A DNA stretch of 64,000 bases from Myxococcales bacterium (GCA_009692485.1 SHZB01000001.1:48960-112959), one strand, 5' to 3'; numbered from the stretch's first letter, positions 41,987 through 60,846 are shown. Made by a program: numbers and translations. Notes: generated by a model from the letters alone, not told the origin.

Positions 41987-42025
41987 GCGCGTTCGCTCAG
42001 CGCGTTCGCTCAGCGCGTTCGCTCA
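41987..42025. repeat. 3 x 13-bp tandem repeat starting on the pth stop codon
   Basis: GCGCGTTCGCTCA x3. The minus-strand TGA is at 42023-42025 (the real stop), 42010-42012 and 41997-41999. Confidence 0.9.
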
Positions 42026-50436: not shown

Positions 50437-51465
50437 TCAGGGCTTCGGGTGCGCGAGGAAGAAGTCGAACAAGGCAGCCTTGAACTCACCCTTGAAGCCC
50501 GGCAAATGCTGGCTTCCGACGAGCTTCCACTGCTCGACGAGGCTCGCGCCCTCGCAGCCGATGTCCCAGCGCGTCACCTTCGTCTCGCTGCCCACGATGA
50601 CCGTGAGATCTTTGTCCGCGGGCGTCTCGTCGGCCGTGAGCGAGCAGCCGTTCAGCATGGCCCAGGTCTCCGAAGTCTCGAGCGCGCCCGGGTACTCCCC
50701 GCCGAAGAGCTTGCCGCCTCCATAGAGGATCGTCGGATCGAGCGAGCCATGGACGACGAGGGCAGTGACCGGCTCGCTGGGCTTGCATTGCGTCTCGTCT
50801 TTGTACGTCGCGCCCGCGAGCGAGCCGAAGGCGGCGATGGCGTCGGCATGTTCACACGCCATGCGATGGGACATGAAGCCGCCGTTCGAGTGGCCGAAGA
50901 AATAGACGCGCTTGGCATCGACCGTGTACGCCTGCTTGATCTCGTCGATGACCTGACGCAGGTAGCCGGAGTCGTCCACGTCACTGCCGTTGAAGTTGCA
51001 GCATGCGTCGGTGGCATTCCAGAATCGCTGTCCGCGCTTGTCGAAGGTGCCATCGGGATACGCGTACAAAAAGCCGTGTTTGTCGGCCATTTCGGTGAAG
51101 CCGAGGTAAATCTCCTGCACCTTGCCGCTGGCCGTGTAGCCGTGCAGCAAGATCAACAGCGGCGCGGGCTCGGCTGGATCGTAGCCGGGCGGAACGTGCA
51201 CCGTGACCGGCCGGTCGCCGCCGATCACGCCGTCGAAGCCGCTGCCCGAGCTCGGATTCGAGGCACCCGCGCCGCCAGTGCCCGTGCCGTTCGCATTCGT
51301 GCCGTTCGTGCCCGAGCTTGCCCCTTGCCCAGCGCTGCCGCCGCCCGCGCCGCCCGCACTCGTGTGCGTCTCGAACCCGGTCGTCGTGTCCGTCCCGCAG
51401 CCGAGAATGCCGGCCGCCAGAAGTGCGGCCGCGAGTGTCTGAAATGCCAGTCTCGGTAATGCCAT
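50437..51465 (-). CDS. secreted esterase, PHB-depolymerase/LpqC-like alpha/beta hydrolase (lipoprotein)
   Basis: MALPRLAFQTLAAALLAAGILGCG lipobox. PLLILLHGYTASG and VYFFGHSNGGFMSHRMA (GxSxG). The track ORF extends in frame to ATG 51609 through 15-bp repeats. Confidence 0.7.
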   Translation of the reverse strand: MALPRLAFQTLAAALLAAGILGCGTDTTTGFETHTSAGGAGGGSAGQGASSGTNGTNANGTGTGGAGASNPSSGSGFDGVIGGDRPVTVHVPPGYDPAEPAPLLILLHGYTASGKVQEIYLGFTEMADKHGFLYAYPDGTFDKRGQRFWNATDACCNFNGSDVDDSGYLRQVIDEIKQAYTVDAKRVYFFGHSNGGFMSHRMACEHADAIAAFGSLAGATYKDETQCKPSEPVTALVVHGSLDPTILYGGGKLFGGEYPGALETSETWAMLNGCSLTADETPADKDLTVIVGSETKVTRWDIGCEGASLVEQWKLVGSQHLPGFKGEFKAALFDFFLAHPKP

Positions 51466-51589
51466 TGTTGGAATTGCCCTAATAGGTAATGCCCTAATCG
51501 GGAATGCCATAGTCGGGAATGCCATAGTCGGGAATGCCATAGTCGGGAATGCCATTGGCGGTAATCCGAGCCTCGGTATTGCCACCTTC
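51455..51589. repeat. about 9 x 15-bp tandem repeat (GG(G/T)AATGCCATAGTC) covering the start-codon neighbourhood of the esterase gene
   Basis: Units every 15 bp from 51455 to 51589. Three are perfect copies (51500-51544). On the minus strand in frame they read PTMAF repeats with ATGs at protein positions 19, 24, 29, 34 and 49 of the long ORF. Confidence 0.9.
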
Positions 51590-51617
51590 GTCGGTCGCGT
51601 ACGGGACATGGGCCGAG

Positions 51618-52901
51618 CTACATATCAGACTTCGCGGACGGCGCGGCTCGGCGTTCGGCGGCGCGGGCGTGGGCTTCGAGCCCTTCGAGGCGGGCCAGAA
51701 TAGCGGCGTCGCGTGCGAGTTCGCGATCATTGCCAGTACCGTCGAGACGCAAGAAGGTGCGGACACGAAGAAAGGTCATCACCGAGAGTCCGCCGGTGTA
51801 GCGCGCCGTTCCGCCCGTGGGCAGCACGTGATTGGGACCGGCACCGTAGTCTCCGAAGACCTCCGCGGAGCCCGGGCCGATGAAGATGGCGCCGTAATGA
51901 GAGAGCCGCTTCGAGCGCTCGTGTGCGTCGGCGGTCATGACCTCGAGGTGCTCGGGCGCGAGCTTGTCCGACGCGGCGATGCCTTCATCGGGCGTGCACA
52001 CCAACGCGAAGCCGTTTTCGAGCGCGCGGGCCGCGAGTTCCCGAGTCGAGAGCCCTTCGAGCTGAGTCGCGAGCGCACGATTGACCGCTTCGGCATGCGC
52101 CCGCGTGGTCGTGATCACGATCGGCAAGGCGTCGCTCGCATGCTCGGCTTGCGCCAGCAGATCGGCGGCGATCAGCTCGGGATCAGCGGCCTCGTCCGCG
52201 AGCACGACCAGCTCGCTTGGACCGGCGAGCATATCGATCGCGACGCGGCCATGGACGAGCTTCTTGGCGGCGGTGACCCAGCGATTTCCGGGGCCGACGA
52301 TGATGTCGACGGCCGGGATCGAGGCCGTGCCGTAAGCCAGCGCGGAGATGGCGTGGGCACCACCTGCGGCGAGCAAACTATCGGCGCCCGCGAGCGCGGC
52401 GGCGGCCATCGTGACTTGTGTAGGCCGGGGGCTCGCGACCCACACCGACCGAACGCCGGCGACGCGCGCGGTGATCGCGGTCATGAGCACGCTCGAGGGC
52501 AGGGGATAGCCGCCGCCGGGCGCATAACATCCCGCGCGCTCGACCGGGGCTATCGTGTGGCCCGCGCTGCCACCCGCGACGGCGAGCTCGAGTGGGGCGA
52601 GCGACGCGCGTTGGGCCTCGGCAAATCGCGTGATTCGCGCTGCTGTACGCTCGAGCACGCCGCGCGCATCGGAGCCGAGTGACGCGAGCGCATAGATGAG
52701 CTGTGCTCGCGGAATGACGAGCGCATCGGTGTCGCCGAGGCCGTCGTGCTGGCATGCGTAGCGACGAAGCGCGGCATCACCCCCGGCGTGAACGTCGTTC
52801 ACGATTTGGCTAGCAGCCGCGAGCGTGTCGGTGTCGATGGCCGCGCGCCGCTCGACGAATCGCTCGAGCTCCGCAAGCGCGATGAGCTTCAAGCCACTCA
52901 C
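51618..52901 (-). CDS. hisD: histidinol dehydrogenase
   Basis: GCYAPGGGYPLPSSVLM, IIVGPGNRWVTAAKK, LLAQAEHASDA and GDYGAGPNHVLPTGGTARY. The GTG start at 52901 overlaps an upstream TGA. The rest of the 725-aa track ORF is an upstream shadow. Confidence 0.92.
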   Translation of the reverse strand: MSGLKLIALAELERFVERRAAIDTDTLAAASQIVNDVHAGGDAALRRYACQHDGLGDTDALVIPRAQLIYALASLGSDARGVLERTAARITRFAEAQRASLAPLELAVAGGSAGHTIAPVERAGCYAPGGGYPLPSSVLMTAITARVAGVRSVWVASPRPTQVTMAAAALAGADSLLAAGGAHAISALAYGTASIPAVDIIVGPGNRWVTAAKKLVHGRVAIDMLAGPSELVVLADEAADPELIAADLLAQAEHASDALPIVITTTRAHAEAVNRALATQLEGLSTRELAARALENGFALVCTPDEGIAASDKLAPEHLEVMTADAHERSKRLSHYGAIFIGPGSAEVFGDYGAGPNHVLPTGGTARYTGGLSVMTFLRVRTFLRLDGTGNDRELARDAAILARLEGLEAHARAAERRAAPSAKSDM

Positions 52902-52972
52902 TTCGCGTCTCCCTCGCGCCGCTCGACGAATCGCTCGAGCTTCGCGATCGCGATGAGCTTCAAGCTGCTCAC
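52827..52972 (-). repeat. 71-bp tandem duplication of the hisIE-stop/hisD-start junction, creating a 24-codon chimeric mini-ORF
   Basis: TCACTTCGCGTC occurs at 52898 and 52969. CGCGCCGCTCGACGAATCGCTCGAGCT.CGC...CGCGATGAGCTTCAAGC is present twice. The mini-ORF 52898-52972 reads VSSLKLIAIAKLERFVERREGDAK. Confidence 0.9.
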
Positions 52973-54222
52973 TTCGCGTCCCCGGGCCGGCGCGTGATCT
53001 TGCGTGCGCGTGCCTCGAGGATCTGCTCGACCTCGGTGAGCGAGACGCCGGCCTTCGCCATCCGGACGAGCGTGAAATAGAGGACATCGGCCGCCTCGTG
53101 CGCGACCTCGTCGTGACTCGCCGCAAGACCAAGCTCGCCCGCCTCTTCGATGAGCTTCTTGCGGAGCAGCTCGGGCTCGTGGAGGAGCCGCGCGGTGTAC
53201 GAGCCCGCTGGTGCGTCGGTGGCGCGGCCGCGCAGCACCTCAGCGAGCGCGGGCATGCCGCCGAGCGCACCCCAACAGCTCGTTGTGCCGGTGTGGCAAA
53301 AGCCCGGGCCTGCCTGCACGACGGTGAAGCGCAGCGCGTCTCTGTCGCAGTCGAGGTCCACGCGCACGAGCCGTTGTGTGGCGCCGCTCGATGCGCCCTT
53401 GTGCCAGAGGCCGCGTTGGCGCGAATGGTAGATTCCGGTGCGGGTCGCGATCGCAGCACGCAGACTCTCGCGACTCGACCAGCATTGTCCGAGCGCGCGC
53501 CCGTGCTCATCGACGACGACCGTCGCAAAGAGGCCGTCCGCGCGATCGCTGACGAGCGGTGCCGCGAACGCATCGCCGAGCTCCATGTGGCCTTGGTAGA
53601 GCGCCATGCCGACTTGCGCGTCGATGCCGAGTTTGTCGAGCGCAGCGACTTCCGCGACCGTGGTGACGCCTCCGGCGATCGTGAGCGAAGCGTCTCCGGC
53701 GGCGTCGCGCAGCTCTCTTGCGCGCTCGAGATCGGTGCCTCCGAGCCGGCCCTCGCGCTCGACGAAGGTGACGAGAAACCCGCCGACGACATCACGCAAT
53801 TCGCGCATCCGCTCGGGCACGCTCGCGCCGGTCTTGGTGCGCCAGCCCTCGACGACGACCTCTCCGTCGAGCGCGTCGAGCGCCGCGATCAGCCGTGATT
53901 TCGGCAATTGACGCAGCAGCTCCGGAGTTGCGGCGGTGCCGAGGATGAGCTTCTCCGCGCCGGCATCGAGCGCTTCGACAGCACGCGCGACGCTGCGGAT
54001 CCCGCCTCCGACGCGGCAGCGTGCGACCCGGCACACTCGCTCGACCAGCGCGCGGTTGTCACCCGTGCCGAGCGCCGCATCGAGATCGATCAACGCCAGC
54101 TCGCCGATGACCCCGAAGCGCTCCGCGATCGGCAGCGGGCAGCCGGCCTCGAGCGCCAAGTCGCGCCCCCCGACGAGCTGCACGGTCTGGCCGCCCATCA
54201 AATCGATTGAAGGAATAATCAC
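52969..54222 (-). CDS. hisA-hisIE: trifunctional fusion HisA (ProFAR isomerase) - HisI (PR-AMP cyclohydrolase) - HisE (PR-ATP diphosphatase)
   Basis: N-terminal IIPSIDLMGGQTVQLVGG...GGGIRS...TIAGGV (HisA barrel). Middle YHSRQRGLWHKGASSGATQRLVRVDLDCDRDALRFTV..CHTG (HisI). C-terminal SYTARLL..KKLIEEAGE...EAADVLYF (HisE). The GTG start overlaps an upstream TGA. Confidence 0.85.
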   Translation of the reverse strand: MIIPSIDLMGGQTVQLVGGRDLALEAGCPLPIAERFGVIGELALIDLDAALGTGDNRALVERVCRVARCRVGGGIRSVARAVEALDAGAEKLILGTAATPELLRQLPKSRLIAALDALDGEVVVEGWRTKTGASVPERMRELRDVVGGFLVTFVEREGRLGGTDLERARELRDAAGDASLTIAGGVTTVAEVAALDKLGIDAQVGMALYQGHMELGDAFAAPLVSDRADGLFATVVVDEHGRALGQCWSSRESLRAAIATRTGIYHSRQRGLWHKGASSGATQRLVRVDLDCDRDALRFTVVQAGPGFCHTGTTSCWGALGGMPALAEVLRGRATDAPAGSYTARLLHEPELLRKKLIEEAGELGLAASHDEVAHEAADVLYFTLVRMAKAGVSLTEVEQILEARARKITRRPGDAK

Positions 54223-54288
54223 ATTCGCACCGGGCTCTGTTCCGGCGTCGAGTACGGCGCCGCAAGGATCACATTCGCACCGGGATTT
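54219..54288 (-). repeat. 50-bp-spaced duplication of the hisF-stop/hisA-start junction (CCCGGTGCGAATGTGAT x2), creating a 17-codon mini-ORF
   Basis: TCACATTCGCACCGGG occurs at 54219 and 54269. The mini-ORF 54219-54272 reads VILAAPYSTPEQSPVRM. Confidence 0.9.
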
Positions 54289-55027
54289 CCGCGGCGGCGA
54301 GCGCGCGCTTCAGATCGCCGACGGTGACTTCGCCGTCGTGAAGGATCGATGCCGCGAGCACTGCGCTTGCCCCCGCGCGCACGGCCTCGAGCATGTGCTG
54401 TGCGTGTGCGGCGCCGCCCGACGCGACCACCGGGATGCGTACCGCGCTCGTGACAGCCCCGATCAACTCGATGTCGTAACCGGCGCGCGTGCCGTCGCGA
54501 TCCCAGCTCGTCAGCACGATCTCTCCGGCGCCGCGTGACGCCGCCTCTCGTGCCCACGCGACCGCGCAGCGCGAGGTTCGCTCTTTGCCAGAGCGCACGA
54601 CCAGCTCCCAGCCCGCGCCATCTTGGCGGCGCGCGGCATCGAGCGCGAGCACCGTGCATTGACTGCCGAAGGTCCTGGCGAGTCGGTCGAGCAGCGACGG
54701 CTCGAGCGCCGCTGCCGTGTTGCTCGCGACCTTGTCGGCCCCCGCCTCGAGCAGAGCGCGCGCATCTTCGATGGTGCGCACGCCGCCGCCCACCGTGAGC
54801 GGAATTCCGAGGACCGCGCGCACCCGACGCACCGTCTCGGTGGCATTGCCGCGCCCTTCCGGCGTCGCCGAGACATCGAGCATCACGAGTTCGTCGGCAC
54901 CTTGCGCCTCGTACGCGAGGGCACGCTCGGTCGGATCACCCGCATCGCGCATCCCGCTGAAGCGCACGCCCTTCACGACGCGACCGGCGTCGATGTCGAG
55001 GCACGGGACGACGCGAATCGTCAGCAC
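54269..55027 (-). CDS. hisF: imidazole glycerol phosphate synthase cyclase subunit
   Basis: VLTIRVVPCLDIDAGRVVKGVRF, GADELVMLD, IPLTVGGGVRT and IPVVASGGA. The GTG at 55027 overlaps the hisH stop (GTGCTGA). Confidence 0.93.
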   Translation of the reverse strand: MLTIRVVPCLDIDAGRVVKGVRFSGMRDAGDPTERALAYEAQGADELVMLDVSATPEGRGNATETVRRVRAVLGIPLTVGGGVRTIEDARALLEAGADKVASNTAAALEPSLLDRLARTFGSQCTVLALDAARRQDGAGWELVVRSGKERTSRCAVAWAREAASRGAGEIVLTSWDRDGTRAGYDIELIGAVTSAVRIPVVASGGAAHAQHMLEAVRAGASAVLAASILHDGEVTVGDLKRALAAAEIPVRM

Positions 55028-55632
55028 GCGCGCACCTTCGCGAGCCAGCGCCCGAGCAGCGCGTGTCCCCATGCGCCGCTCAGCTCGGGATGAAATTGAC
55101 ACGCGAGCAACGCCCCCTTTTCGAGCGCGGCGACGAAGGGACTTCCGTGCACGGCGAGCGCCCCCGAGTAGCCAGCGGGGAGCGCATCGAGCCGATACGA
55201 GTTCGCGAAATAGGCATGCCCGCTCGCGAGCAGCGTCGAGTCCAGGGCGGGCTCGACCAGGTTCCAGCCGAGCTGCGGCACGACCAGCCCCGCGCGATCT
55301 TCAAATCGTCGCACCGCCGCGTCGATCACGCCGAGGCCGGAAATTCCGGGACTTTCTTCGCTTTCGCGACACAAGAGCTGAAGGCCGAGACACACGCACA
55401 ACAGGGCTCGGCCCTCACGCGCGCGCTTCGTGAGCGCCACGGCGAGCCCCGTCGCCTCGAGCCGCGCCATGCCCGCACCGAACGCGCCGACCCCCGGCAA
55501 CACCACGCGCTCGGCGGCGGCGACGACGCTCGCATCGGTCGACAGCCGGGGCGCGGCACCGACGCGAACGAGGGCGGCGCACACCGAGGCGAGGTTCGCC
55601 GTGCCGGTATCGACGACGATGACCTCGCTCAC
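55021..55632 (-). CDS. hisH: imidazole glycerol phosphate synthase glutamine amidotransferase subunit
   Basis: VIVVDTGTANLASV, LPGVGAFG, LCVCLGLQLL and FHPELS. The GTG at 55632 overlaps the stop of the last mini-ORF. Confidence 0.9.
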   Translation of the reverse strand: MSEVIVVDTGTANLASVCAALVRVGAAPRLSTDASVVAAAERVVLPGVGAFGAGMARLEATGLAVALTKRAREGRALLCVCLGLQLLCRESEESPGISGLGVIDAAVRRFEDRAGLVVPQLGWNLVEPALDSTLLASGHAYFANSYRLDALPAGYSGALAVHGSPFVAALEKGALLACQFHPELSGAWGHALLGRWLAKVRAC

Positions 55633-55775
55633 GAGAGCGCCTCGCCGCTCGGAGCGAACGCGCATGTCTTCATCGCAAGCACCGCGTCATCGAAGGCACC
55701 GCGTCATTGCAAGCACCGCGTCATCGCAAGCACCGCGTCATCGAAAGCACCGCGTCATCGAGAGCACCGCGTCAC
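55629..55775 (-). repeat. six 17-bp tandem units plus one 45-nt ORF forming seven chained mini-ORFs between hisB and hisH
   Basis: Plus-strand CATCG(C/A)A(A/G)GCACCGCGT units. The minus-strand stops at 55772, 55755, 55738, 55721, 55704, 55687, 55670 and 55629 each overlap the next GTG/ATG by 4 nt. Confidence 0.95.
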
Positions 55776-56371
55776 AAGACGCCCTTCGTGCTGGCGATGT
55801 CCGTGCCGGTGATCGCCACGGCTTGCCGCAGCGCGACTGCCAACGCTTTGAACGCGGCCTCGGCCCGGTGATGATCGTGCTCGCCCTTGAGGACCTCGAC
55901 GTGCAGCGCCGAGCGCGACGCCATCGCGAGCGACTGCATGACGTGGGTCACACACTCGCACGAGAGGTTGCCGAGCTTCTCGCGACGCAGCCCGAGATTG
56001 ATCGCCGGCCACGGGCGCCCCGACAGATCGATCACCGCGCGGGCCAGCGCCTCGTCGAGCGGCGCATACCCATGACCGAAGCGCGCGATCCCGACCCGCT
56101 CGCCCAGCGCTTGATCGAGCGCCTTTCCGAGCGCGATCCCGCAGTCTTCGCTCGTGTGGTGATCGTCCACCTCGAGATCCCCCTGGCAGCTCAGCTCGAG
56201 ATCGAAGCGCGCGTGTTTGACGAGGGTCGTGAGCATGTGATCGAGAAACCCAATCCCGGTCGCGATGCGGCTCACGCCGGTGCCGTCGAGGTTCAGCGAC
56301 AAGGCCACGCTCGTCTCGTTGGTCTTGCGCGCGATCGTGGCCTGTCGTGGCGGGGTGGCGATGGCGTTCAT
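55772..56371 (-). CDS. hisB: imidazoleglycerol-phosphate dehydratase (monofunctional)
   Basis: ARKTNETSVALSLNLDG, GIGFLDHML, DDHHTSEDCGIALG and GEHDHHRAEAAFKA. ATG 56371 overlaps the mini-ORF stop as ATGA. The upstream TTG at 56392 is less likely. Confidence 0.93.
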   Translation of the reverse strand: MNAIATPPRQATIARKTNETSVALSLNLDGTGVSRIATGIGFLDHMLTTLVKHARFDLELSCQGDLEVDDHHTSEDCGIALGKALDQALGERVGIARFGHGYAPLDEALARAVIDLSGRPWPAINLGLRREKLGNLSCECVTHVMQSLAMASRSALHVEVLKGEHDHHRAEAAFKALAVALRQAVAITGTDIASTKGVL

Positions 56372-56430
56372 GATTCGTCGATGGTGCTCCAAAAACTGAA
56401 GTCGAGCGCTCGGTGTGCGATGGCGTTCAT
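56368..56430 (-). repeat. 59-bp-spaced duplication of the hisC-stop/hisB-start junction (ATGAACGCCATCGC x2), giving a 20-codon mini-ORF
   Basis: The mini-ORF MNAIAHRALDFSFWSTIDES starts on the ATGA overlapping the hisC-HAD stop (56427-29). It ends on the ATGA overlapping the hisB start (56368-71). Confidence 0.9.
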
Positions 56431-58133
56431 AGCCTCGTCGAGCCCGCTCCGCGAAGGGAAGTCAGCCGCTCTAGCTCATCGAGCGTGGACAAGAGTCGTC
56501 CCGCGCCGGCCGCGACGAGTCCATCGCCGTTGTAGCCGAGCGGCACGACCCCGGCCGCGCGGGCTGCGAGCACGTCATCGCGGGTGTCGCCCACCAGCCA
56601 CGCAGAGCTCACGTTGAGCAGGGCGAGCGCGCGCAGCACCGGCTCGGGGCTTGGCTTCAGCGGCGCGTCCTCCATGCACACCAGCGTCTTGAACAAGGGC
56701 GCGAGCTCGAAGCGCGCGAGGAAGCGTTCGGCGTCGGCGCGCGGTCGGCCGGTGACGATGCCAAGCGGCAGACGGGCGGCGAGGCGCTCGAGCAATTCAC
56801 GCGCACACAAGAGCGTCTCTTGTTCGTGAAGTCCCGCAATTCCCTGCGTTTCGTCGCCTTGGTAGAGCAACTCGAAGCGCGCCTTCACGTCCGCGAACGC
56901 CGCTGTGACCCCGTGCTCAAGGAGCAGCGCGTGGGTCAGGTGCCAGTCGTTGTTCGCGTCGCCCGCGGCCTTTTTTCGCGCCACGTCTTCGTGTGTCACG
57001 ACTGCGCCGAAGCTCGCTGCGGTCGCAATGATCGCCTCCCGATACGACCCGCGCACGTCGGCGAGCACACCGTCCATATCGAAGAGCAGCGCCTCGGGGG
57101 CGAGCACCGCATCGAGCGCCGCCGAGAGCCGCGCGAAGGCTGGTTCATCCGACGGACACGTGATGCGCGCCATGCCGTCGAGCTTGCCGTGGCCCGGCCA
57201 GATGCGCACGGCGATCCCAAGTCCCGCGAGCCCGTCGCAGAACCACTCGGCGTCCCTCGGCCGCGCGAGGACGAAGTTTGCCTGCGACGGGTGCGCCACG
57301 CATCCGAGCCTCTCGAGTCGCTCGCCGAGCCGCGTTCGCTCGATCTTTACCTGCGCGACATGGCGGCGCATGTGCGGCTCACCCTCGTCGAGCCATCGCA
57401 TCGCGAGCGCCACCGCCGGCGAGCTGACGGCATACGGTTGCCCCGTCCCACGCAGCCAGTCGATGACCAAGGGCTGCGCGATGACGTAGCCGACCCGCAG
57501 TCCGGCGAGGCCCCACGCTTTCGACAGCGTGCGAAACACGAGCGCGTTTTCGTATGCGAGCGCCGTGTGCGTGAGGTCTTCGTCGGCGAACTCGGCATAC
57601 GCGAGATCGACGAACAGCGCCGCATCGCCCGCGGCCTCGGCCACGCGCCGAAGCTCGCCCGCGGTGATCGCCGCGCCGGTAGGATTGTTCGGCGTGACGA
57701 GCGCGACCGCCCCCGTGTTTGCGTTCAGCTCGCGCAGGACCGCATCCACGGGATACGCGCCCGTTGGCCACGGCACCTCGCGCACCGTCGCGCCCGCGAG
57801 CGCCGCGTAGCGCGGAAGCATCTCGAAGGTGGGCACCGGCAACACGAGCTCGCGACCCGGCCACAACAGCGCTTGGCATGCCCGCGCGAGCGCATCGTCG
57901 GCGCCGCAGGTCGTCAAGACGCAGTCGGGCCCGACTCCGAGGCGAGCCGCGAGCTTGCGTTCGAGCGCGCGCGCGTCGGGATAGCGCCGCAACAGCTCTG
58001 CTGACTCCAGCGCAGCGAGCAAGCCCACGGGTGGCAGCGGCCCCTCGTTGCTGTCGAGCTTCAAGTCGATGGGCGCACCGTGCCGCGGCACGTGATAGCT
58101 GCCCTGGCGCGCGATGACGGGATTCGGCTTCAT
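56427..58133 (-). CDS. hisC: histidinol-phosphate aminotransferase fused to a C-terminal HAD-superfamily phosphatase domain
   Basis: The N-terminal ~355 aa have DLKLDSNEGP, NPNNPTG and FRTLSKAWGLAGLRVGY (PLP Lys). The C-terminal ~210 aa have LLFDMDGVLADV, GIVTGRPR and LVGDTRDDVLAARAAG (HAD motifs I-IV). An alternative GTG start at 58154 overlaps the hisG stop. Confidence 0.88.
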   Translation of the reverse strand: MKPNPVIARQGSYHVPRHGAPIDLKLDSNEGPLPPVGLLAALESAELLRRYPDARALERKLAARLGVGPDCVLTTCGADDALARACQALLWPGRELVLPVPTFEMLPRYAALAGATVREVPWPTGAYPVDAVLRELNANTGAVALVTPNNPTGAAITAGELRRVAEAAGDAALFVDLAYAEFADEDLTHTALAYENALVFRTLSKAWGLAGLRVGYVIAQPLVIDWLRGTGQPYAVSSPAVALAMRWLDEGEPHMRRHVAQVKIERTRLGERLERLGCVAHPSQANFVLARPRDAEWFCDGLAGLGIAVRIWPGHGKLDGMARITCPSDEPAFARLSAALDAVLAPEALLFDMDGVLADVRGSYREAIIATAASFGAVVTHEDVARKKAAGDANNDWHLTHALLLEHGVTAAFADVKARFELLYQGDETQGIAGLHEQETLLCARELLERLAARLPLGIVTGRPRADAERFLARFELAPLFKTLVCMEDAPLKPSPEPVLRALALLNVSSAWLVGDTRDDVLAARAAGVVPLGYNGDGLVAAGAGRLLSTLDELERLTSLRGAGSTRL

Positions 58134-58150
58134 GGCAGCGCGCTGCCCGC

Positions 58151-59023
58151 TCACGGCACGATCTGCATCAGGCGCGACACCACGATATCGGTGCCGCCGC
58201 GGGCCTTGAGCTCGGGGATGAGCCGCGGGAGCAACTCGCGTGGAACCGCGGCTTTTACGGCAAATGCGTCCGAACCGGCGAGCGGCGACACGGTCGGCTG
58301 GCGCATGCAAGGCAAGGCCGCAATCACGCTCGCGAGCGCGCTCGCCGCCACGTTCACTTCGAGCATGACGCGCTTCCTTGCGTCGAGCACCGACCGCAAG
58401 ACCAGCACCAGCTCTTCCAGCGCGGCGCGTTTGTGCGGCACCTCGAGCGCCCGGCGACTGGCATAGAGGCGCGTGGAAGAACGCAGCAGCTCATCGATGA
58501 TCGCCAGCCCGTTCTGCGCCAGCGTCGCGCCCGTGGCGGTGTTGTCGACGATGCAGTCGGCGTCCTCCGGCGGAAACACCTCGGTCGCGCCATACGAGCG
58601 CACGAAGGTCGCATCGAGCCCGCGCCGCGCGATCCATCCGCGCGCGAGCCGTTCGTACTCGGAGGCGACGACGACCCGGCGGGTCGGCAGCGCGCCATCG
58701 ACGAGCAGCTCTTCGGGTGCTGCCGCCACGATCCGCACCGGATCGAGCTCGGTGTCGAGCAGCTCCACGACGTCGGCCTCCAGCTCTTCTACCCAGTCGG
58801 CCCCGCCAAACCCGACATCGCGCGTGCCGATATGCAGCATCTCGATGATGTTCTGCGGCTTCAGCACCTTGGTGACCGTGTCCGGCAGCGACACCACCGG
58901 TCGATAGCCGCGCTCCGCGAGCCGCACGCCGATCCCCGCGTCCTCGAGCAGCGTGACGACGCCGCGTTGCATATGCCCCTTCGGCAGGGCGAGCTTGAGA
59001 GTGGGATCGAATGAACTAGGCAT
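58151..59023 (-). CDS. hisG: ATP phosphoribosyltransferase (long form)
   Basis: LKLALPKGHMQ, DVGFGGADWV and a C-terminal regulatory domain. ATG at 59023. Confidence 0.9.
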   Translation of the reverse strand: MPSSFDPTLKLALPKGHMQRGVVTLLEDAGIGVRLAERGYRPVVSLPDTVTKVLKPQNIIEMLHIGTRDVGFGGADWVEELEADVVELLDTELDPVRIVAAAPEELLVDGALPTRRVVVASEYERLARGWIARRGLDATFVRSYGATEVFPPEDADCIVDNTATGATLAQNGLAIIDELLRSSTRLYASRRALEVPHKRAALEELVLVLRSVLDARKRVMLEVNVAASALASVIAALPCMRQPTVSPLAGSDAFAVKAAVPRELLPRLIPELKARGGTDIVVSRLMQIVP

Positions 59024-59163
59024 GAACGCGGGGACCCTAATCGCGCGATCTGCCCGAATCGAGGACCAATTGAACCGCGTGATCACGTGTCGCAGAATCA
59101 CGGTGCCGTGCGCCGGGCAGGGGAGGCAGTCGTGCTTGCCTGGCGTGCTACCGTTCGGCACCT

Positions 59164-60846
59164 ATGAGCCTTACCAAGAAAGTTGCGCGCGCTCCTTTCG
59201 GCCTACCTCGCCCCGGCGCTTCCCGTCTCGCGTGCACACGGACATTGGCATTGGCCACTACCGCCCTCGCGGTGCTCGCGTGCTCATTGTCCGACACGAT
59301 GCCAGTGGGCGCGGGCGGCGCGGGCCCAGGTGGCAGCGGCGGCGCTGTAGCCAGCGGCGGTAGCGGTGGTCAGCCGATCGTAAAGCTCGAGAGCGTCGCG
59401 TTTGCCCAGGCCATCGACGGCGCGATGTTCGCGAGCCGCAGCGTCTATGCGGAAGTGCCCATTCACCTCGCGGTCACGGGCATCGCCGAGAAGGTGACGC
59501 TCGTCAGCGGCGGCACGGAATTCGCGGCCAGCGACGCGGACGGCGACGGCACCTGGACGGCGGCGTTGCCGATCGCGGCCCTCCCCGACGGCGCGCTCGA
59601 GCTCTTGGTAAAGGCCGACGGCGACGGCATCAACGTCCAGAGCTCGGCGGCGCTCGTCGTTGGCGAGGCCGGCATTCGCTTCACCGATTTCGATAAGGTC
59701 GGCTATGGCGGTTCGCCGCTGCTCCACCGGGATGGCGACAAACTTTATGTCACCTGGCATGACCGCTCTCTGCCGCTCGCCGAGGTTTATCTGCAACGGC
59801 TCGACGGCGCGTTTCGCCCGGTGGAAGACCGCGTCAAGCTCGTCGGCTCCGACGTAGAGACGCTGCATTCTCGGATTGCCATTCACGGCGGCGTGCTCGG
59901 CATCCTCTATCAACAGCTCGGCGTTCCTTATAAGAACTACTTCAAGGTCACGGACCTCGCCGGCAAAGAGCTCGTCGCACCCATCGCGCTCGATCCGGCC
60001 GGCACCAATGGCGCTCCGGGTGGCGCGGTCGCCTTCGACGGAACCGGCTTCGTGTTCAGCTGGCGCAGCCGCGACGGTGGCCTCCCCAGCCACATCCACT
60101 GGGGCCGCGTCGTCCTCGAGACTGGCAAGTTCACGGGGCCCATCACCGTCGCGACCGCCGGCGCCGGCGACGCGGTGGATCCCATCGGACCCTTTCAATC
60201 GTTCACGTCGCTCTCGATAGCTCCGCTCGCGGACAGGTCCGCTGTCAGCTTCGTGCGGGACCTCTATTTGCCATTGCTCGAGACCACGATCCCGAAGGCC
60301 CAATTGGCCATTATCGGCACCGACGGCGAGCTCCTCAGTGAGGAGTACGCGGGCACCAAGACGGATTTTCTCTTTCACTGGGACTCGCGTGTCTACCCGC
60401 ACGGGGACACCTTCTTATCGGTCTATCCCGCCGTCGATCTGAACTCCGATCTCATCCCGCCGTGGACCGTGTTTCATGGCAAGACCGCCGACGCCGCGGG
60501 CCTGACCGCTGGGACGAAGGGCGCCGGCGTGAAGATGGTAAACGCCGTCGACGATCGCGGCTTCGGCTTCTACTTGCCACACCCCAAGCACCACGCCGTG
60601 ATGGGCTGGCTCGATCACCGAACCTATGTCGACATCTCTACCGGTCGCATCGAGCTCTACGTAGCCCCGGTCGGCGCGGATCTCGTCGCGTCCAATTCCG
60701 CCACGGTCTTCGAGCACGCCAAATTGAGCACGCTCTCGCAGCTCACCGGAGTGCTCGCCGGCACCAACGTCCCGATGGTGTGGCGCGACGCGCGAATAAA
60801 CGGCTACGACAAACTCGAGCTTTGGTTCGACACCGCCTGGTATTGA
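59164..60846 (+). CDS. hypothetical secreted lipoprotein
   Basis: 560 aa. LAVLACSLSD lipobox followed by a Gly-rich linker. No recognised domain. Coding-like composition. Confidence 0.55.
   Translation: MSLTKKVARAPFGLPRPGASRLACTRTLALATTALAVLACSLSDTMPVGAGGAGPGGSGGAVASGGSGGQPIVKLESVAFAQAIDGAMFASRSVYAEVPIHLAVTGIAEKVTLVSGGTEFAASDADGDGTWTAALPIAALPDGALELLVKADGDGINVQSSAALVVGEAGIRFTDFDKVGYGGSPLLHRDGDKLYVTWHDRSLPLAEVYLQRLDGAFRPVEDRVKLVGSDVETLHSRIAIHGGVLGILYQQLGVPYKNYFKVTDLAGKELVAPIALDPAGTNGAPGGAVAFDGTGFVFSWRSRDGGLPSHIHWGRVVLETGKFTGPITVATAGAGDAVDPIGPFQSFTSLSIAPLADRSAVSFVRDLYLPLLETTIPKAQLAIIGTDGELLSEEYAGTKTDFLFHWDSRVYPHGDTFLSVYPAVDLNSDLIPPWTVFHGKTADAAGLTAGTKGAGVKMVNAVDDRGFGFYLPHPKHHAVMGWLDHRTYVDISTGRIELYVAPVGADLVASNSATVFEHAKLSTLSQLTGVLAGTNVPMVWRDARINGYDKLELWFDTAWY

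Follow-up and report, generated by a model that had tools for sequence, protein, structure and literature searches.

A 17-codon reading frame linking hisF to hisA in a Myxococcales bacterium, and its possible role as a translational relay

What is an open reading frame (ORF) of 17 codons doing between hisF and hisA, two genes that in most related operons simply overlap by four nucleotides (nt)? The question is raised by a 64,000-nt stretch of a Myxococcales bacterium (GCA_009692485.1 SHZB01000001.1:48960-112959; the whole of this stretch is referred to here as the window), in which the stop codon of hisF overlaps the start of a short ORF, and the stop codon of this mini-ORF overlaps, in the same manner, the start of a hisA-hisI-hisE fusion gene. 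Our answer, held at a probability of roughly 0.55 and drawn from sequence comparison, is that a duplication at the junction has been kept through preserved coupling of termination and reinitiation to a hisA start that is poor in Shine-Dalgarno (SD) pairing, with the mini-ORF serving as a relay. Taken alone, the unit at hisF/hisA is a modest, lineage-specific feature, and its interest comes from a chain of similar junctions along the entire his operon and from a counterpart in a sister lineage.

Anatomy of the hisF/hisA junction

HisF ends in ...AAAEIPVRM, followed by a TGA at 54271-54269 (minus strand GAA ATC CCG GTG CGA ATG TGA), and the GTG at 54272-54270, overlapping this stop as GTGA (54272-54269), opens the mini-ORF, VILAAPYSTPEQSPVRM. 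The mini-ORF stop, TGA 54221-54219, overlaps in turn the hisA start codon, GTG 54222-54220, as a second GTGA (54222-54219), both ends of the mini-ORF being NTGA overlaps (-4) between co-directional ORFs, which is the anatomy of a coupled pair. The 17-nt core CCCGGTGCGAATGTGAT has exactly two occurrences in the window, both on the minus strand (54284-54268 and 54234-54218), spaced by 50 nt, or 3x16+2, a period of the class 3n+2. The 50-nt unit lies between co-directional hisF and hisA, within the hisG-hisD operon, carries its -4 coupled ORF in the orientation of the operon, and is present as one extra copy only, with no array. Much of this had been noticed in a preliminary description, made by a model from the sequence alone, and exact matching on the minus strand and tracing of the stop/start chain bear out its coordinates, the double occurrence of the 17-nt string, the two GTGA overlaps, the 3n+2 spacing and the reuse of the PVRM-stop ending of hisF.

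The starts of the two genes can be judged by comparison with 80 related loci, obtained from a scan of GTDB species representatives and belonging to uncultured Myxococcota-like metagenome-assembled genomes (MAGs) at 59-80% identity; the junction was scored in the 76 loci where both hisF and hisA could be placed. Residues 1-251/252 of HisF are matched by tblastn in the 80 relatives, and hisF likely starts at GTG 55027, overlapping the hisH stop as GTGCTGA. HisA starts at the homologous codon of the M-I-[IV]-P-S-I-D motif in all 76 operons, which fixes GTG 54222 as the hisA start, the codon that the preliminary description had also assigned. No other in-frame ATG, GTG or TTG is present between the upstream stop (at about 54310) and the conserved N-terminal IIPSID motif, and an alternative hisA start is excluded on both these grounds. 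NCBI MSP23647.1, for which the same start is annotated, matches the HisA-IE protein at 100% identity.

The SD pairing predicted at this start is weak, -3.0 kcal/mol versus a median of -7.2 in the relatives, 92% of which have a stronger one. The usual hisF tail in the relatives is ...GTGGAGGTGCGnnn-ATGA, with a GGAGG SD inside the VEVR codons, and in the window CCCGGTGCGAAT stands in place of GTGGAGGTGCGnnn.

Table 1. Features at the hisF/hisA junction and at the other repeat-bearing junctions of the his operon (positions counted from the first nucleotide of the window)
Feature	Coordinates	Strand	Basis or remark
hisF (imidazole glycerol phosphate synthase cyclase subunit)	54269..55027	-	NCBIfam TIGR00735, 294.7 bits
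Core copy 1, CCCGGTGCGAATGTGAT	54268..54284	-	Exact match; last four sense codons of hisF (PVRM), TGA stop, overlapping GTG of the mini-ORF
Core copy 2, CCCGGTGCGAATGTGAT	54218..54234	-	Last codons and stop of the mini-ORF (PVRM-TGA); GTG start codon of hisA-hisIE and the 13 nt upstream of it
Interior (33 nt) of the 50-nt unit, CCTTGCGGCGCCGTACTCGACGCCGGAACAGAG	54235..54267	-	Origin uncertain
Putative relay mini-ORF of 17 codons, GTG-VILAAPYSTPEQSPVRM-TGA	54219..54272	-	Stop/start chain tracing
hisA-hisI-hisE fusion gene, 417 amino acids	52969..54222	-	NCBIfam HisA and HisIE models; Pfam PF00977+PF01502+PF01503
Putative hisC/hisB relay ORF of 20 codons, MNAIAHRALDFSFWSTIDES	56368..56430	-	ATGA overlaps at both ends; 14-nt core ATGAACGCCATCGC repeated 59 nt apart
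Putative hisB/hisH relay ORFs, six of 6 codons and one of 14 codons	55629..55775	-	17-nt tandem unit; NTGA-linked, ending on hisH GTG 55632
Putative hisIE/hisD relay ORF of 24 codons, VSSLKLIAIAKLERFVERREGDAK	52898..52972	-	HisD head and HisIE tail; 71-nt tandem duplication, 90% identity

A derived insertion and its counterpart in a sister lineage

The overlap of hisF and hisA is exactly 4 nt (ATGA, GTGA or TTGA) in 67 of the 76 related operons and 7 nt in two of them, in a few the genes are separated by real spacers (16, 29, 215 or 224 nt), and 74 are without a junction unit. Since the plain 4-nt overlap is found in 67 of the 76, the 50-nt unit is derived, having been inserted into what was ancestrally a 4-nt overlap, before an SD-poor start. 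Nor is the repetition of its 17-nt core a matter of chance: when the 64-kb window was shuffled 100 times with dinucleotides preserved, no shuffle contained an exact direct repeat of at least 17 nt within 100 nt, and the core is thus a true duplication by descent. In the real window, 21 loci possess such a repeat, and the density of local repeats is 0.33 per kb, versus 0.029 per kb pooled over 81 related loci (about 11-fold); on this measure the genome is unusually prone to small local duplications. The periods of the local repeats in the window are mostly multiples of 3 (15, 24, 30, 33, 36, 39, 45, 48, 60), others being 13, 14, 28, 40, 43 and 56.

The clearest view of how such a unit may arise is provided by the closest relative, an organism of the type represented by locus L001 (80% amino acid identity), in which the same junction possesses a 65-nt unit, also 3n+2, in three copies. 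The order there is hisF ...LAAAELPVRT-stop, MIIPAIDRMGGLAAAAELPVRT-stop, MIIPAINRMDGLAAAAELPVRT-stop, hisA MIIPSIDLMGGQT, with all of these linked by ATGA, and the mini-ORFs (MIIPAIDRMGG-LAAAAELPVRT) are composed of the first 11 codons of hisA and the last 11 codons of hisF. Such HisA-head/HisF-tail chimeras are direct evidence that, in the sister lineage, the junction was duplicated in tandem. An origin by junction duplication, implied in the preliminary description, gains its support through these chimeras; for the unit of the window itself the support does not extend beyond the 17-nt core. The three-copy form is found in several assemblies (L001, L081, L082/L087 and L084), and L083, from a different sample, has two copies, along with an identical HisA-IE protein; copy number of the 65-nt unit is thus polymorphic, or at least unstable. 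The preliminary description had named absence or variation of the duplication, if without consequences for expression, as evidence against its proposal, and the first half of this is what is seen, with the unit absent from 74 of 76 relatives and the sister copy number being three versus two.

Could the 17-residue peptide itself be functional, as a micropeptide? Its frame is open, and its composition is coding-like, with G or C in 14 of 17 third positions. The sister counterpart, on the other hand, is limited to a shared PVR tail, the unit has no other copy in the data, and between the sister mini-ORF copies and the real hisA head there are four differences, all of which change the amino acid, as would be expected without constraint on the peptide. 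A functional micropeptide is, in our estimate, scarcely credible, and the peptide is most likely a functionless by-product.

Junction repeats along the his operon

The genes of the operon, all on the minus strand, are ordered hisG, hisC fused to a HAD hydrolase, hisB, hisH, hisF, the hisA-hisI-hisE fusion and hisD (hisH and hisB being identified by NCBIfam models as well), and this order is common to the loci of all 80 relatives. From hisG to hisD (58154-51618) they form one chain of NTGA overlaps with 10 putative relay ORFs, one at hisC/hisB, seven at hisB/hisH, one at hisF/hisA and one at hisIE/hisD, the sole break in the chain being hisH/hisF, with an overlap of 7 nt (GTGCTGA). At hisB/hisH, the 17-nt unit CGCGGTGCTTGCGATGA is present on the minus strand at 55670-55775 in six copies of 88-92% identity, each ending in ATGA, and the ORFs read V/MTRCxR. 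At hisIE/hisD, as in the sister lineage at hisF/hisA, the unit originated by duplication of the junction. The four junction units of the window are unrelated to each other by blastn-short.

An unbiased scan of 1.0 Mb (the window and 87 related loci) for NTGA junctions that are repeated and lie between ORFs of at least 100 codons returned, besides the sister lineage's 65-nt unit, only the units of 59, 50 and 71 nt in the window. With the 17-nt array included, the periods of all five junction repeats are 3n+2, an outcome with a probability of (1/3)^5 = 0.004 if the period were unconstrained, as calculated for five events in two related lineages. This is the only period class in which an ORF opening on the upstream stop terminates at the downstream start.

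A number of side observations can be made on the same operon. Across the 80 relatives two fusions are conserved, of hisC (aminotransferase) with a HAD-type hydrolase (56427-58154) and of hisA, hisI and hisE (52969-54222), the HAD part of the former being possibly a histidinol-phosphate phosphatase, and hisF precedes hisA, unlike in the classical hisH-A-F-I order. For hisH, an alternative in-frame start, ATG 55665, lies 4 nt past the stop of the last 6-codon ORF. In the sister lineage, a TGATG on the hisC stop opens an ORF with an 18-nt repeat, (PAPDTS)n, of five copies in L081:2938-3085 and two copies in L083:2929-3025, and this ORF ends about 60 nt before hisB, being coupled at its 5' end only. 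Where the window has the 71-nt duplication, L001:3511-3600 encodes a C-terminal extension of HisIE, of 28 residues, that ends on a GTGA overlap with hisD, and in L038 the IE frame is open past the GDAK motif at which HisIE ends in the window, a HisIE-HisD fusion being possible. Just downstream of hisD, at 51428-51592, a 15-nt repeat of nine copies encodes (MAFPT/MAFPI)n at the N-terminus of an ORF at 50437-51609 (minus strand); the gene at the position of this ORF in L081 has weak esterase matches in Pfam. Farther away, at 41987-42025 (minus strand), the 13-nt unit TGAGCGAACGCGC is present in three copies at the stop of the upstream gene, with TGA in all three frames, and is not a relay chain, as the next overlap is CTGA.

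Reinitiation, its alternatives and known systems

How might such junctions have been built and retained? At an ancestral junction with a plain 4-nt NTGA overlap, hisA would have been translated by ribosomes fresh from termination on hisF. A small local duplication of the junction, by slipped strands, in this repeat-prone myxobacterial lineage would then have inserted the 50-nt unit, and this would be why the core, with the hisF tail, the stop and the restart codon, is present twice; because the period was 3n+2 and the new frame contained no internal stop, the insert would have formed an ORF of 17 codons that reaches from the hisF stop to the hisA start. Ribosomes ending hisF would reinitiate on the mini-ORF, terminate at the hisA GTGA and reinitiate on hisA, the relay carrying coupling across an otherwise untranslated gap of 46 nt before an SD-poor start, and the unit would probably persist as a member of the sole class of junction duplications that leaves downstream expression intact. 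Termination-reinitiation has been found to need -4/-1 overlaps, gaps of about 20 nt almost abolishing coupling, and in E. coli reinitiation requires no more of the upstream gene than its last 15 nt (PMC10666635). From this spacer effect, an untranslated gap of 46 nt would be expected to uncouple an SD-poor hisA, and a relay joined by -4 overlaps on either side would be expected to keep it coupled. In extent, the conserved 17-nt core approximates the published 15-nt element with the restart codon added. If so, the mini-ORF would be translated, hisA would depend on it, and the 50-nt unit would share the mode of duplication seen in the sister lineage, three points that we infer from the arrangement of the junction.

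Several sets of observations weigh against this account. The first set concerns the origin of the unit: identity is confined to the 17-nt core, which is the only part demonstrably duplicated, and the 33-nt interior, CCTTGCGGCGCCGTACTCGACGCCGGAACAGAG, resembles significantly neither the hisF tail (p=0.2) nor the hisA head (p=0.7), so that a tandem duplication of the junction comes, for the 50-nt unit, by analogy. What the unit shares with the hisF tail is PVRM-stop, and with the hisA head only GTGAT. A MAFFT alignment of the interior with the mini-ORF of the 65-nt sister unit introduces gaps of 13 and 2 nt and is suggestive only, being without statistical support. The interior may be a decayed HisA-head/HisF-tail duplicate; that the core, and not all of the 50-nt unit, is demonstrably duplicated had escaped the preliminary description. 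The statistic on 3n+2 periods, too, is limited by the small number of events and lineages behind it.

The window organism is, moreover, an uncultured MAG for which a single assembly is known. Metagenome contigs searched with an exact 23-mer contained no second assembly of it, a degenerate search of the same contigs found only those of the sister lineage and two chance matches, and a collection of 5.8 billion proteins contained no HisA-IE protein between 80% and 100% identity. The existence of but one MAG contig leaves room for the suspicion that the repeat was made in the building of this contig, by a mis-joining of strain variants, for example. Such an artefact would not be expected to target four gene junctions, all in 3n+2 periods and with open frames, the combination of an exact 17-nt core with a diverged interior is unlike the joins made through k-mer overlaps, and the sister-lineage equivalent is present in several assemblies from different samples. 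An assembly artefact is thus very improbable.

The second set concerns the need for a relay. In L002 (72%), second-closest among the relatives, an untranslated spacer of 29 nt separates the two genes, without a relay ORF or an obvious SD, and spacers are also present in L010 (16 nt), L044 (215 nt) and L017 (224 nt). Evidently, hisA can be initiated de novo in this clade, and the mini-ORF may be dispensable for hisA. The unit could then be a neutral scar, merely tolerated, with free 30S subunits initiating hisA at GTG 54222 de novo, through a weak GGUG or in a non-SD mode. These four relatives lack both overlap and relay ORF, and an obvious SD is missing in several, although hisA must be expressed in all of them; the unit is missing from most relatives, its sister counterpart varies in copy number, and small repeats abound in the genome. 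However, 3n+2 periods with open frames at all five independent junction repeats would not be expected of a frame without importance, both restart codons have the same 13 nt upstream despite an interior that has diverged beyond recognition, and the hisA SD is among the weakest 8% when compared to the relatives. A neutral scar is the less probable explanation, though one that deserves to be taken seriously.

The third set concerns the confinement of the junction repeats, within the window, to the his operon: no duplication is found at other candidate NTGA junctions, in a list that is approximate, having been produced by crude GC3-based gene calling. Pure neutral slippage does not explain such confinement, and the sequence hints at something specific to the his operon, crude as the gene calls behind the comparison are. 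A further rival is an adaptive translational attenuator, in which relay ORFs are selected to lower or tune downstream output, a fraction of the ribosomes alone being passed on at each reinitiation, and the number of repeats is an evolvable dial in the manner of variable number tandem repeats. [quoted passage not shown] Against it, the trait is not conserved across the clade, 74 of 76 relatives being without any unit at hisF/hisA, seven serial relays before hisH would unbalance the 1:1 HisH-HisF complex, and the mini-ORFs are not enriched in His codons, with none at all in VILAAPYSTPEQSPVRM, which leaves no link to histidine supply. Selection for attenuation is therefore an unlikely explanation.

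Preserved coupling through the mini-ORF remains the explanation that we prefer, and a wider idea can be built upon it, that self-templated duplication of stop/start junctions is recurrent in this lineage and selectively filtered, giving rise de novo, at many operon junctions, to relay ORFs like those of the MIRUs. We offer this only tentatively, as something rather doubtful. If true, the his operon, with its 10 relay ORFs, would be a natural ladder of serial reinitiation in which 3n+2 periods and a restart element of about 15 nt are under selection, and it would show how elements of the MIRU type originate and how overlapping genes separate, while providing a natural system for measuring the efficiency of reinitiation per step. 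The junctions of one, one, one and seven relay steps would be graded natural cases for both the efficiency of reinitiation and its dependence on distance. As to annotation, apparent intergenic spacers in tightly coupled operons are possibly translated.

How does this junction compare with known systems? One is the translational bypass in gene 60 of phage T4, a 50-nt hop between matched codons. The present junction resembles it in having 50 nt between identical sequences and a stop directly after the first copy; a hop of this type was rejected, as the landing copy precedes the same TGA, leading to the same HisF product, and neither a significant RNA structure nor a take-off hairpin is present. 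A leader-peptide attenuator of the his type was also rejected: the mini-ORF has no His codon, no terminator-like site was seen in or near the 50-nt insert, Rfam gave no match at E up to 1 across 51000-60000, and the folding of the 106-nt junction RNA is no better than that of shuffles (z = -0.27). With no promoter-like site in or near the insert either, nothing of this kind provides the unit with another role.

Closer parallels are found among systems that couple ORFs. Ribosome-delivering upstream ORFs and synthetic bicistronic designs also employ a short ORF solely to bring a terminating ribosome to an overlapping start (PMC12548453); those are located at the 5' end of a transcript and possess an SD of their own, whereas the hisF/hisA mini-ORF is internal and would be fed by reinitiation. 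With canonical ATGA/GTGA coupling (Huber et al. 2019, PMC6728339; Huber et al. 2023, PMC10666635) the junction shares the -4 overlaps, here at both ends, and a repeated core that corresponds to about the last 15 nt of the upstream gene, a length sufficient in E. coli. The difference would be in two serial reinitiations through a 17-codon ORF without homologue, versus a single one between real genes, and serial relays were not measured in these two studies (PMC6728339, PMC10666635).

The closest likeness is to the MIRUs, short repeats at start codons with an internal ORF that is coupled at -4 to the gene and with minimal impact on expression (PMC12548453, 2025 review), a type already described, and one that the preliminary description, while correct as to the anatomy, had missed (PMC12548453). 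In both cases units of tens of nt are located inside operons, between co-directional genes, with an ORF that is -4 coupled to the downstream gene; the unit lengths of the MIRUs are mostly 3n+2, with 8 of the 12 classical loci having units of 53 bp and 2 having units of 77 bp (PMC3558156), and their copy number varies between strains (PMC9392950), as it does for the 65-nt unit of the sister lineage. The MIRUs, however, are one dispersed and possibly mobile family, while here each junction has a unit of its own that, where the origin is traceable, was copied from its own flanks (downstream head and upstream tail), a local origin under which homology to the mycobacterial MIRU consensus would not be expected; the hosts differ, a Myxococcota MAG versus Actinomycetota, and the hisF/hisA unit is a single extra copy. 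Searches with blastn-short for the 50-nt unit and for its interior found no further copy in the 64-kb window or in the 87 related loci, as would be looked for in a dispersed family. Our analysis thus suggests that the hisF/hisA unit works like a MIRU without being a member of the MIRU family, and its resemblance to these known mycobacterial repeats makes it a curiosity rather than a new principle. Should the relay work as proposed, it would be a natural case, outside the mycobacteria, of short ORFs that solely pass ribosomes between genes, and it would point to one route by which such elements originate: a 4-nt overlap is duplicated locally, and of the duplicates only those of the 3n+2 class survive.

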